A stretch of 64,000 nt of DNA from Escherichia phage HMD-6. The DNA lies in the sequence record PQ505080.1; one strand, written 5' to 3'. Position numbers and translations under genes: made by a program. Each line of letters starts with the position of its first letter. Positions within the stretch are counted from its first letter, which is position 1. Under the pieces are notes generated by a model that did not search any database, had not been told where the DNA came from, and was given only the letters and a program-made list of their open reading frames with translations. Of the stretch, positions 262 to 38,560 are shown piece by piece.

Positions 262-290
262 TTGCCAATCTTAATTAGATGTGGTAGAAT
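262..290 (+). promoter_or_regulatory. sigma70-like promoter, TTGCCA-17 bp-TAGAAT with TGG extended -10
   Basis: -35 TTGCCA 262-267, 17-bp spacer, TGG 282-284, -10 TAGAAT 285-290; same architecture as the other promoters in the structural module. Confidence 0.4.
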
Positions 291-307
291 AGAGTAATCG
301 GAGATAC

Positions 308-336
308 TAGCCCTCTGACACGAGGGCTATTTTGTT
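308..336 (+). terminator. intrinsic terminator-like hairpin in the terminase-portal intergenic region
   Basis: Perfect 8-bp stem TAGCCCTC/GAGGGCTA with 6-nt loop, followed by TTTTGTT. Confidence 0.5.
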
Positions 337-360
337 ATACTGTTTTGAGGGGTAAAGCTT

Positions 361-1917
361 GTGTCCAAAAAGAACCGCAGGAAACACAACGCCACAGCCA
401 AAACTGTGAATAAATCTGGGAACGCAGGCGCACCAACTCATAATGTTCGTATGAGTGAGATCGGTTCTGGCGCACTTTCCCAAATTATGGCAGAATCACA
501 ATCTATGATGGTTGAGGAATTGCGTTGGCCTCAACTGATTGCTACAGTGGAAACTATGAAATGTGATTCCACAGTTGCTACTGCCTTAGATACAAAATAT
601 GTTTTCATCACGAAAGCATTTAATGATTTTAAGATCCTTTATAATGTTAAAAGTGAAGACTCTAAGAAAGCTGCCGAGCTTATAGAGTATTCTTTGCGTA
701 ATTTGGCAAACCAACAAACTCTTCGAGATATTGCAAGAAGCGCAGCTACCTTTAACGAGTATGGTTTTTCACTGTTTGAGAAAGTATACCGCAGAGAGAA
801 AGAAGGTAAATACGCCGGGATGCTTCTTATTGATAAGATTGCGTTCCGACCACAGGCCAGTTTGTCCAGATCAGAGCCGTTTGTCTTTGACAAGAATAGT
901 AGAACACTGACGGGTATTTATCAATCACCTAATGCATTTCTAAACACGCAGAATGCACGCTGGGCTGGCCCTCTTGCTGCAATGCCTTCAAAAGGCTTTA
1001 ATGAGCCTGAAATTTTCATCCCTGCTAAAAAGCTTATGCTCATGACCCTGTCAGGAACAGAGTCTAATCCTGCAGGTGTGTCACCGATGATAGGTTGCTA
1101 CAGATCTTTCCGTGAGAAAGTTCTGATTGAAAACCTTGAGGTTGTTGGCTGCTCCAAAGACCTTGGTGGTGTGCTTGAGCTGAAAATTCCTTCCAATATT
1201 CTGAACAAGGCCAGCATTGACCCGAACTCAATGGAAGGGAGAATGGTTGCAGATCTTATGCTTGACGCAGCAAATGCCCACAGTGGGGAGCAAAGTTTCT
1301 TTATACTTCCGTCTGATAGAGATAAGTCTGGTAAAGAGCTTTACTCCATGACCCTGAAGGGTGTTGACGGCATGGGTAAGCAGTATTCAACTAAAGATTT
1401 GATTGATGCCCGTAAGAAGGCGATTCTTGACCGTTTCGGTGCTGGATTTATTAACCTCGGTAACGATAACGTTGGATCCTTCTCCCTGTCTGAGTCAAAA
1501 CAGTCTATCCATGGGCATTTTGTTCAGCGTGATATAGATATTATCACTGAGGCCTTCAATAAAGATCTTATTCCACAGCTTCTGGCATTGAATGGTATCA
1601 TCCTTGAAGATGATGATATGCCTAAACTGAAACCTGGTCTGATTGAAGAAGTGGACATGGAGAGCTTCTCCAAGTTTGTCCAGAGGATCGGTGCTGTAGG
1701 TTACTTGCCAAAAACTCCTGCAGTAATTAATAAGATTCTTGAAGTAGGCGGGTTTGATGAAAGATTTGACGAGGACATGGATCAGGAAGAGCTGATTAAA
1801 CTCTTGGGCCAGGACATCAGTAGAGCTGGTGATGGAATGGCTGCAGGATCCACTGGCAACGGCACTTCTAAGATGTCATCAACCAGAGATAACTCCATAT
1901 CTAACATGGAAAATTAA
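361..1917 (+). CDS. portal protein (putative)
   Basis: 518-aa ORF with GTG start 8 nt after GAGGGG; size and position between terminase and scaffold genes. Confidence 0.5.
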   Translation: MSKKNRRKHNATAKTVNKSGNAGAPTHNVRMSEIGSGALSQIMAESQSMMVEELRWPQLIATVETMKCDSTVATALDTKYVFITKAFNDFKILYNVKSEDSKKAAELIEYSLRNLANQQTLRDIARSAATFNEYGFSLFEKVYRREKEGKYAGMLLIDKIAFRPQASLSRSEPFVFDKNSRTLTGIYQSPNAFLNTQNARWAGPLAAMPSKGFNEPEIFIPAKKLMLMTLSGTESNPAGVSPMIGCYRSFREKVLIENLEVVGCSKDLGGVLELKIPSNILNKASIDPNSMEGRMVADLMLDAANAHSGEQSFFILPSDRDKSGKELYSMTLKGVDGMGKQYSTKDLIDARKKAILDRFGAGFINLGNDNVGSFSLSESKQSIHGHFVQRDIDIITEAFNKDLIPQLLALNGIILEDDDMPKLKPGLIEEVDMESFSKFVQRIGAVGYLPKTPAVINKILEVGGFDERFDEDMDQEELIKLLGQDISRAGDGMAAGSTGNGTSKMSSTRDNSISNMEN

Positions 1918-1984
1918 AAATTATCAACACAGGGGGTTGCAAAACCTCCTTTGGCGTGATAAAATAATCCACATGGGGAATAAG

Positions 1985-2404
1985 ATGCCACAGGAAGAAA
2001 TGATTTCCTACGAAATCATCTACGAACCTGACACTAAAGATGCTCACGGTGAGTGGATGAGTAAAGACACCATCAAAAAGGCTAAAGATAACTGGGATGC
2101 AGCATACGCCGCAGGCCTAGTTTCTGAAAACCTTTTTCACTTGACCTCTACAGATGCTTTCACTATTGAAAAGACGTGGATTCAAGAAGAGTTTGATGTT
2201 GTAGTAATTGGCACTGAGCAGGTCATCAAGGCTGGCTCTTGGGTTGCTAAAGTTAAATACAATAATCCTGAATTATGGGAAGCTAAGAAGGCTGGCATTG
2301 TTGGTGGCCTAAGCATTCAGGCAACAGGTAATGTTGATGAAGAAACTGGTGAAATTACCAACGTAAACTTCGGGATCAGTGTTGTAGAAGAGGGCAATGA
2401 ATAA
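1985..2404 (+). CDS. hypothetical head morphogenesis protein
   Basis: 139-aa ORF taken from ATG 1985 (GGGG just upstream); the ORF-track start at 1829 would overlap the portal gene by ~90 nt; sits where a prohead protease is expected but is too small and shows no protease motif. Confidence 0.4.
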   Translation: MPQEEMISYEIIYEPDTKDAHGEWMSKDTIKKAKDNWDAAYAAGLVSENLFHLTSTDAFTIEKTWIQEEFDVVVIGTEQVIKAGSWVAKVKYNNPELWEAKKAGIVGGLSIQATGNVDEETGEITNVNFGISVVEEGNE

Positions 2405-37576: not shown

Positions 37577-37590
37577 ATCGGAGGACTAGC

Positions 37591-38175
37591 ATGAAAATAC
37601 TTCAAGAGTTTAAGCTTTACCAACCGGGATCTGGCGAATACTACACCAACAAGGAGGCCAAGGAGCTGACTCCTCAGGAGGTTGAGGATTACACAGCATA
37701 CACTGGATATTTTTTACGTAATGATGATGGCGATTGGTATGTGCAATCACGAACACTGCGACAAGAAAATCCAGGCTGTATCTTCCTACTTGTTGACGAG
37801 AAGGGTATTCTTAAGACATCTACAGAAGAACCTGATGCCTTGTGGCCTGCTCCAGGTCTTCGTGTGGTTATCGCCAAAAAAGAAGAGGTACCAGAAAACA
37901 TTATGCTCCACCACGACGCTTTGCGTTTAGTTGGTGATGAATTTGTCACAGACAATGAATTCTTTGTTCAACAGGCAGAGGGTGTCATAGAGACAGAACT
38001 TGCTTGGGCTACTGCTAGAATTGGTGCCTATCAAGACATGATTGACCTTGAATACGATCTTACTGATGACCAAAAACGCAACATCAGAGATTTGAAAATG
38101 TACAGGGTAAAACTTCTTGAAATAGATACATCTAAAGCCCCTGACATTTTCTTCCCGGAACGACCTACCCTCTAA
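37591..38175 (+). CDS. hypothetical protein, possible fibre assembly factor
   Basis: 194-aa acidic ORF directly after fibre paralog A. Confidence 0.35.
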   Translation: MKILQEFKLYQPGSGEYYTNKEAKELTPQEVEDYTAYTGYFLRNDDGDWYVQSRTLRQENPGCIFLLVDEKGILKTSTEEPDALWPAPGLRVVIAKKEEVPENIMLHHDALRLVGDEFVTDNEFFVQQAEGVIETELAWATARIGAYQDMIDLEYDLTDDQKRNIRDLKMYRVKLLEIDTSKAPDIFFPERPTL

Positions 38176-38186
38176 GAGGAGGTGTT

Positions 38187-38501
38187 GTGGAGTTGGATTT
38201 GGCGGCATTGTACGGTATCTGCATGGGTACCGTTGTCCCGATCTGTGTATGGGCTTTCAACCAGTGGCACACCAAATGGAAAGGCATTTCCAAGAGGCTG
38301 GATGAGCTGGAGAAAGACCTCATTTTAGTGAAAAATAGCATGGTTACAAAAGATAGACTTGATTCCATTATTGAGACCCGGTTAAGTAAGCTAGAGGCCG
38401 ATATTAACGACCTTAAGCAAGATGTCAGGACAGATGTCTCCGGTATCAGAGCCGATGTGCAAAAGATTTTACACATGCTTGTAGAGCATAGTAAAAGGTA
38501 A
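38187..38501 (+). CDS. small membrane protein, N-terminal TM segment plus coiled coil
   Basis: 104 aa; GTG start 5 nt after AGGAGG; hydrophobic residues ~5-27 (LAALYGICMGTVVPICVWAF) then heptad-like helical region. Confidence 0.45.
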   Translation: MELDLAALYGICMGTVVPICVWAFNQWHTKWKGISKRLDELEKDLILVKNSMVTKDRLDSIIETRLSKLEADINDLKQDVRTDVSGIRADVQKILHMLVEHSKR

Positions 38502-38510
38502 ACAAAGGTC

Positions 38511-38540
38511 AGAACGGCAAGGATGCCGTTCTTGCATTTT
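38511..38540 (+). terminator. terminator-like hairpin overlapping the next promoter
   Basis: Perfect 9-bp stem AGAACGGCA/TGCCGTTCT with loop AGGA, T-rich tail. Confidence 0.5.
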
Positions 38541-38560
38541 GTTCTCTAAAGTGTTAAAAT
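38532..38560 (+). promoter_or_regulatory. sigma70-like promoter, TTGCAT-17 bp-TAAAAT with TGT extended -10
   Basis: -35 38532-38537, -10 38555-38560. Confidence 0.45.

Follow-up and report, generated by a model that had tools for sequence, protein, structure and literature searches.

The structural genes of Escherichia phage HMD-6 (sequence record PQ505080.1) raise the question of what kind of promoter drives them, and whether these promoters stand apart from those of the other transcription units. A stretch of 64,000 nucleotides (nt), hereafter the window, was analysed. A sequence-only reading of it had described seven intergenic sites between positions 262 and 38,560 as a late-promoter family with a shared extended -10 element, TGGTA(A/G)AAT, each paired with an upstream terminator. 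At 95-98% identity to rV5-like genomes (Vequintavirus), the window is judged to belong to an rV5-like coliphage; what is the plus strand here is the minus strand in the rV5 reference (NC_011041). We report eight sites (S1 to S8, Table 1), which we predict, with a probability of about 0.8, to be functional host sigma-70 extended -10 promoters of the structural and assembly operons. This feature is genuine, conserved and ordinary in kind.

The seven sites were confirmed as described, each having a TTGnnn -35 element, an exact 17-bp spacer, TGn and a TA(A/G/C)AAT hexamer, but an eighth full match at 1937-1965 (S8), intergenic if the protease gene starts at ATG 1985, had been overlooked. The shared TGGTA(A/G)AAT held for five of the seven, but not for the sites at 38532 (TGTTAAAAT) and 14824 (TGATACAAT). 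The composite pattern TTG-N17-TGnTAnAAT matched eight times in the window, always on the plus strand, which is the coding strand; 0.35 matches were expected and at most two were obtained in 100 shuffles. This excess is more than 20-fold above expectation, and every match is intergenic. The motif search by gene class, which the sequence-only reading had proposed as a check, was run on the window and on the rV5 genome, and all window matches fell in the gaps of the structural module. These gaps total approximately 1.27 kb, or approximately 2.7% of the 47-kb module, and the probability that uniform placement would put all eight matches there is approximately 3e-13. Enrichment was limited to the composite with TTG or to the specific TGGTARAAT (8 matches vs 1.57 expected), whereas the loose TGnTAnAAT alone was not enriched in the window (16 matches vs 11.6 expected). 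Three extra copies of TGGTAAAAT (43661, 63383 and 63529) lie in coding sequence, lack both TTG at -35 and the A after the hexamer, and occur in about the number expected by chance. The remaining gaps of the structural module contained no further promoter-like site, save that of an inserted endonuclease gene.

The similarity of the eight sites is restricted to TTG (-35 to -33), TG (-15/-14) and TAAAATA (-12 to -6), and their pairwise identity elsewhere is 0.29 (0.27 expected). Because they are unrelated outside these positions, the sites are independent instances of a signal, and copying of a repeated cassette was ruled out as their origin. TTG occurs at exactly 17 bp in 8/8 sites (chance per site, 0.017), which argues for contact with sigma region 4; the full TTGACA or TTGACT is present in two of the eight. 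Every -10 hexamer is of the form TAnnnT with A at -11 and T at -7 (TAAAAT in six sites, TAGAAT and TACAAT in one each), and TG stands at -15/-14 in all eight, as the search pattern required. The sites lie 13-65 nt before start codons that are preceded by GGAG- or GAGG-like sequence.

Table 1. Predicted promoters, terminators and transcription units of the window. dG, free energy in kcal/mol; aa, amino acids; rV5 names in brackets.
Feature	Position	Strand	Sequence or dG	Context
S1 (P064)	262..290	+	TTGCCA-N17-TGG-TAGAAT-A	3 nt past terminase stop, upstream of portal gene (361)
S8	1937..1965	+	TTGCAA-N17-TGA-TAAAAT-A (TGATAAAAT)	between portal stop (1917) and protease start (ATG 1985)
S2 (P056)	6415..6443	+	TTGCTT-N17-TGG-TAAAAT-A	upstream of neck, sheath and tube genes (start ATG 6462)
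S3 (P051)	11578..11606	+	TTGACA-N17-TGG-TAAAAT-A	upstream of tail assembly chaperone genes
S4 (P048)	14824..14852	+	TTGTAA-N17-TGA-TACAAT-A	upstream of baseplate operon (likely start ATG 14886)
S5 (P040)	26691..26719	+	TTGCGT-N17-TGG-TAAAAT-A	
S6 (P036)	32201..32229	+	TTGACT-N17-TGG-TAAAAT-A	upstream of baseplate wedge gene
S7 (P030)	38532..38560	+	TTGCAT-N17-TGT-TAAAAT-A	upstream of tail fibre genes
Hairpin and U-tract (t064ABC)	308..329	+	~-14	downstream of S1, ~+12 to +33 of predicted transcript
Strong intrinsic terminator (t060)	4871..4894	+	-24.8	past major capsid gene; no promoter behind
Intrinsic terminator (t052)	9862..9885	+	-20.6	past tail tube gene
Intrinsic terminator	12387..12420	+	-26.1	between chaperone and tape measure genes; no promoter behind
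Intrinsic terminator	14790..14811	+		past tape measure gene, 12 nt before S4
Intrinsic terminator	26659..26678	+		12 nt before S5
Intrinsic terminator	32164..32185	+		15 nt before S6
Hairpin terminator	38511..38532	+		U-tract overlaps S7 -35
Intrinsic terminator	41674..41695	+		before last, 1878-aa gene; no family promoter behind
Terminator	47366..47387			convergent end of structural module; both strands annotated in rV5
Early-unit promoter (P011)	54692..54720	-	TTGACA-N17-TGA-TAAGAT (TGATAAGAT)	extended -10
Early-unit promoter (P010)	54734..54762	+	TTGACT-N17-TATAGT	A-tract ahead
Structural module	1-47,351	+		packaging, head, tail and fibre genes, all on plus strand (rV5 genes 64 to 27)
Minus-strand unit	47.4-54.7 kb	-		rV5 genes 26 to 11
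Plus-strand unit	starts 54,761	+		rV5 genes 10 to 1, then rIIB, helicase

Across the whole rV5 genome, the composite pattern gave 10 matches, all on the coding strand and eight of them in the structural module. The other two, likewise full late-type matches, lie on the rV5 minus strand at 123662-123690 (TTGTAA-N17-TGCTAAAATA), before ORF215-213, and at 63252-63280 (TTGACA-N17-TGATAAAAT), before ORF74 and the transfer RNA (tRNA) cluster; co-regulation of the genes behind them with the structural genes is possible. Behind the first of these two, gp209 has a PVP-SE1 homologue that adjoins the fibre genes.

Conservation was assessed in orthologous regions of PVP-SE1 and EspYZU08 (Seunavirus), of PaulScherrer (phi92-like, Stephanstirmvirinae) and of IMG/VR contigs anchored on gp048-like, gp036-like and portal proteins. 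TGnTAAAAT(A) is kept in orthologous gaps of Seunavirus and of three further Vequintavirinae lineages (55-80% protein identity), where the flanks have diverged. S8 is the most widely conserved, with a site in every Vequintavirinae lineage retrieved (TTGCAA-N17-TGTTAAAATA in PVP-SE1); in one lineage (L116) its TG is lost, but the site reads as a perfect TTGACA-N17-TAAAAT. S2 appears as TTGATT-N17-TGGTAAAATAC in approximately 10 loci of other genera (53-59% protein identity) with unrelated sequence upstream. At S4, all groups, Seunavirus among them, have a terminator and then TTGTTT-N17-TGATAAAAT; the phi92-like phages have a terminator and then TTGACA-N18-TGATAAAAT or -TGTTAAAAT. A terminator and TGnTAAAATA mark S6 in every Vequintavirinae group, and the -35 varies there (TTGACT, TTGCAA or TTTATA). 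S7 (TTGCAT-N17-TGCTAAAATA) and S1 with its following hairpin are kept in a group of approximately 80% identity. No obvious counterpart of S3 was found in PVP-SE1, and distant gp048-like loci (approximately 27% identity, L018-L048) showed no such motif. Sigma-70 extended -10 promoters would be expected to show just such a pattern, in which the extended -10 core is kept, the -35 is negotiable and one can compensate for the other, and the comparison indicates that the rV5 promoter set is under selection across Vequintavirinae genera.

The seven sites and the idea of late promoters had already been published, as predictions, for rV5. Kropinski et al. (Virol J 2013, 10:76; PMC3606486) ran MEME on the sequence upstream of the rV5 late genes 27-66 and listed eight copies of TggTAaAAtA as 'putative late promoters' (Additional file 4, Table S4C), likening them to the T4 late promoter. 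Seven of them (P064, P056, P051, P048, P040, P036 and P030) correspond almost base for base to the window sites at 262, 6415, 11578, 14824, 26691, 32201 and 38532, and the terminators of Table S4D (t064ABC, t060, t052, t050, t049, t041 and t028) match hairpins found in the window. The sites and the late-gene reading of the motif are thus common to both analyses, although that study gives the -10 motif alone and leaves the TTG conserved at 17 bp unremarked save at P036 and P051, which also stand in its sigma-70 list; the rV5 RefSeq record annotates P51 as a promoter of the sigma-70 type. The portal/protease site at 1937-1965 was missed there, hidden by the rV5 gp063 annotation. Its eighth site, P055 (window 7326-7345, TGGTAGAAG), was rejected here: its hexamer, TAGAAG, has no T at -7, TGGAAG stands at the -35 position, and the site falls within the gp055-like open reading frame (ORF). 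The window itself differs from rV5 as another isolate with an extra homing endonuclease at one junction. What is new here is the cross-genus footprint, S8 (which also mends a gene start), the removal of P055 and a corrected pairing with terminators; the importance beyond annotation is small. In the literature searched, nothing past the 2013 paper was found on rV5-like, Vequintavirus or PVP-SE1 promoters, and the Felix O1 paper gives sigma-70-like promoters only and states temporal control as unknown.

The sigma-70 reading can be laid out as a transcription scheme for the module. TGnTAAAAT would be recognised by sigma regions 2 and 3.0, and the partial -35 (TTG), placed at the optimal spacing of 17 bp, by region 4. 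In extended -10 promoters, TG at -15/-14 contacts sigma region 3.0 and lowers the dependence on the -35. With the extended -10 promoters of E. coli, the sites share TG at -15/-14, TAnnnT with A-11 and T-7, the 17-bp spacer and a partial -35; the relatives likewise tolerate a weak -35, and L116 has a consensus -35 in place of the TG. They differ in an unusually uniform hexamer (TAAAAT, not TATAAT) and in the A at -6, which is invariant in this phage. Transcription by the host holoenzyme (E-sigma70) would start approximately 7 nt past the hexamer and give leaders of 13-65 nt ending in Shine-Dalgarno sequences. The unit served by S8 would comprise the protease, scaffold, decoration and capsid genes and end at the strongest terminator (4871); that of S2 would comprise the neck, sheath and tube genes and end at the terminator at 9862. 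S3 would serve the chaperone genes, and S4, S5, S6 and S7 would restart transcription directly past terminators along the baseplate and fibre genes. If efficient, the terminators past the capsid, tube, chaperone, tape-measure and fibre genes would partition the 47-kb module, and at four terminator-promoter junctions the blocks would be re-initiated without relying on read-through. Read-through would be needed for the genes behind promoterless terminators, namely those at 4928-6408, the tape measure gene and the last, 1878-aa gene.

Terminators were taken as hairpins with U-tracts, with dG from -14 to -26 kcal/mol. A terminator lies 0-15 nt upstream of the promoter at S4, S5, S6 and S7 only, so the claim that every promoter is paired with an upstream terminator is true at four of the eight sites; at S1 the hairpin lies downstream, and S2 (6415), S3 (11578) and S8 (1937) have none adjacent. 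Conversely, the terminators at 4871, 9862, 12387, 41674 and 47366 have no family promoter behind them. Thus, the picture of terminator-promoter cassettes survives insofar as terminators segment the module, but the actual layout comprises four terminator-promoter junctions, one promoter followed by a terminator, three promoters alone and five terminators alone. In rV5, S3 lies approximately 40 nt past t052; in the window a 541-aa ORF (9951-11576) intervenes. The order of promoter, hairpin and ribosome binding site (RBS) upstream of the portal gene (window 262-360) recurs in the group of approximately 80% identity and in phi92-like phages (L096/L098, L111, L114, L117 and L004 2761-2857) with unrelated hairpin sequences, and Seunavirus has neither promoter nor hairpin upstream of that gene. 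The hairpin after S1 may be a partial terminator, a leader structure or a site of promoter-specific read-through. A TTGACA-N17-TATTGT with TG was also observed at 41613-41641, within the 3' end of a fibre gene and just before the terminator at 41674-41695 and the 1878-aa gene; 41613-41695 is possibly a second promoter-then-terminator arrangement.

Several points weigh against the sigma-70 reading. The near-invariant TAAAAT and the A at -6 exceed the known requirement of sigma-70 and set the sites apart from the promoters of other units. Promoters this near consensus should fire on naked DNA from its entry, which fits 'late' expression poorly without a delaying factor. The predicted S1 transcript would meet a terminator-like hairpin at approximately +12. 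No 5'-end mapping, RNA sequencing or in vitro transcription for Vequintavirinae was found in the literature searched.

The sequence-only reading had also held that the early-region promoters at 54692-54762 are of another type. Their -10 hexamers are indeed different, but the minus-strand promoter (54720-54692) is itself of the extended -10 kind. The pattern TTGAC[AT]-N16-18-TAnnnT has 66 matches in the rV5 genome, 59 of them on the coding strand, which are concentrated outside the structural module; in the gaps of that module it is found in rV5 only at S3 and S6. The eight structural-module sites were compared with 36 TTGAC[AT]-N17 sites elsewhere in rV5. At the -35, TTGC is present in 5/8 and full TTGAC in 2/8 of the structural sites, against TTGAC[AT] in 36/36 early-type sites by selection. 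TG at -15/-14 is found in 8/8, also by selection, against 14/36 (39%). The hexamer is TAAAAT in 6/8 structural sites and heterogeneous in the early-type set (TAAAAT in 2/36); the base at -6 is A in 8/8 and not conserved, respectively; and the sequence upstream of the -35 is T-rich in the former and often an A-tract in the latter. The difference between the two sets is real and partly one of ascertainment, each set having been chosen by a pattern (TTGAC for the early and TGnTAnAAT for the late sites). When only TAnAAT hexamers are considered, A at the third position (6/8 vs 2/9) is a borderline difference. A separate promoter class for structural genes is a hypothesis that these sequences may suggest.

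The strongest alternative makes this hypothesis mechanistic: early promoters of the TTGACA/A-tract type, which depend on the -35 and the UP element, would be shut off when the phage modifies or masks sigma region 4 or the alpha subunit, and the extended -10 promoters, with little need of -35 contact, would stay active or be favoured. The degenerate -35, invariant TG and A at -6 and near-uniform TAAAAT of the structural sites, set beside a heterogeneous early set with A-tracts, are what it would lead one to expect, as is the decay of the -35 to TTTATA in other genera where TGnTAAAATA stays; nevertheless, part of that contrast was built in by the selection patterns, TGn is present in more than a third of the early-type promoters, and TTG is kept in 8/8 late sites. 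All elements of the late sites are canonical for sigma-70, and the mechanism would account for early shut-off but not for late turn-on. We consider this alternative unlikely, although it is the most serious competitor.

A candidate for such a shut-off factor is the product of the first gene behind P011 (53671-54726, minus strand), a gp11-like protein. Its PHROG matches to 'decoy of host sigma70' (E 2e-13) and 'Srd anti-sigma factor' (E 2e-9) are weak, a PHROG family labelled HNH endonuclease matches it far more strongly, and Pfam gave no match. T4 Srd is now tied to RNase E and not to sigma, which counts against the alternative. PHROG and Pfam scans of ten early-unit and insert products gave no sigma or anti-sigma domain beyond this Srd-like hint. 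A tblastn search of the window and rV5 with a T4 AsiA query gave no AsiA-like gene (best E 0.27), a weak negative as the query sequence was approximate, and the rV5 RefSeq annotation names no sigma factor or RNA polymerase. The RefSeq product names in this region look unreliable: the rV5 homologues gp011 and gp012 are both called 'HNH endonuclease', and the window counterpart of gp012 (52177-53658, minus strand) matches Pfam DUF2201_N (putative metallopeptidase, E 4e-28) and the VWA-like DUF2201.

Switching by promoter architecture is known from Thermus phage P23-45, which uses gp39 and gp76, and T4 AsiA inhibits -35-dependent promoters. In those systems, as would be the case here, early genes lie behind -35/-10 promoters and structural genes behind extended -10 promoters; in contrast, the rV5 structural promoters keep the TTG of the -35, and an RNA polymerase-binding inhibitor is not identified in rV5-like phages. 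A more specific proposal, which we hold to be somewhat less probable again, is that the two architectures encode the timing of Vequintavirinae transcription, with A-tract and TTGACA promoters of weak and variable -10 hexamer for the early and middle units and TGnTAAAATA promoters of dispensable -35 for the structural units, a phage protein (perhaps the Srd-like P011 product) blocking contacts of sigma region 4 or the C-terminal domain of alpha and thereby shifting host RNA polymerase. If true, a switch of the AsiA or P23-45 kind would operate in a phage group without a known RNA polymerase-modifying factor, and promoter architecture as the setter of gene timing would provide a simple, testable model for a large group of therapeutic-candidate coliphages.

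Far less probable is the notion that the sites are T4-like late promoters read by a diverged phage sigma-like protein without -35 contact, which follows the comparison of TggTAaAAtA with TATAAATA made in PMC3606486. The A-rich -10-region motif is, as in T4, restricted to morphogenesis genes, here the gaps between structural genes, AAATA at -10 to -6 is common to both, and A stands at -6 in every site. The consensus here (GTAAAATA) nevertheless agrees with TATAAATA at only 5/8 positions (-13 to -6), and the combination of TTG at the exact 17-bp spacing in 8/8 sites and TG at -15/-14 is a signature of sigma-70 and not of gp55, whereas the T4 type has no -35. The gain of TTGACA with the loss of TG in L116 likewise follows sigma-70 logic. 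PMC3606486 notes that rV5 has an Srd-like gp11 but no homologues of gp55, gp33 and gp45, and no sigma factor is named in the rV5 RefSeq annotation. That the sites are chance look-alikes of an AT-rich intergenic background, or relics of repeated cassettes without promoter function, is just as improbable, for although generic sigma-70 scans give 38-52 consensus-like sites per 20 kb in this AT-rich genome (33-37 in shuffles), the composite excess, its intergenic, coding-strand placement, the unrelated flanks and the core kept across genera at orthologous positions all speak against it.

The predicted sigma-70 promoters also bear on the annotation of neighbouring gene starts. The mechanically called ORF and the rV5 gp063 annotation (record 55883-56455) begin upstream of ATG 1985, overlap the end of the portal gene and cover S8. 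ATG 1985 is preceded by GGGGAA as an RBS, and the PVP-SE1 protease orthologue is annotated as starting past the corresponding motif; from this comparison, ATG 1985 is likely the true start of the gp063 protease. For the gp048-like gene, ATG 14886 is the more likely start than ATG 14859, which sits just 6 nt past the -10 of S4.

An inverted repeat with one mismatch surrounds the -10/start region of S3 (window 11584-11630). It is perfect in rV5 and in locus L007 (TGCACCAT and ATGGTGCA, 22 nt apart), and may be an operator or a product of chance.

The first 20 kb of the window matched 138 phage records, of which 111 have a query coverage above 80% and 93-98% identity, namely the Escherichia phages FV3, SYGMH1, JEP1 and slur16 and other rV5-like myoviruses. 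Approximately 20 GenBank records labelled 'Campylobacter phage' (A147, A140, A141, A13b, D1, C2 and others; host Campylobacter jejuni) are 95-98% identical to rV5-like coliphages, and this host label looks doubtful.

The ORF that separates t052 from S3 matches PHROG HNH/homing endonuclease families (phrog_559, E 1e-110). The insert (window 9886-11576) sits exactly between the end of the terminator and the promoter, and carries its own promoter-like site (TTGACA-N17-TATCCT, 9901-9929) and a strong RBS. rV5, FV3 and others lack the insert (92% query coverage), and the 98% coverage of JEP1 and A147 suggests that these two have it.

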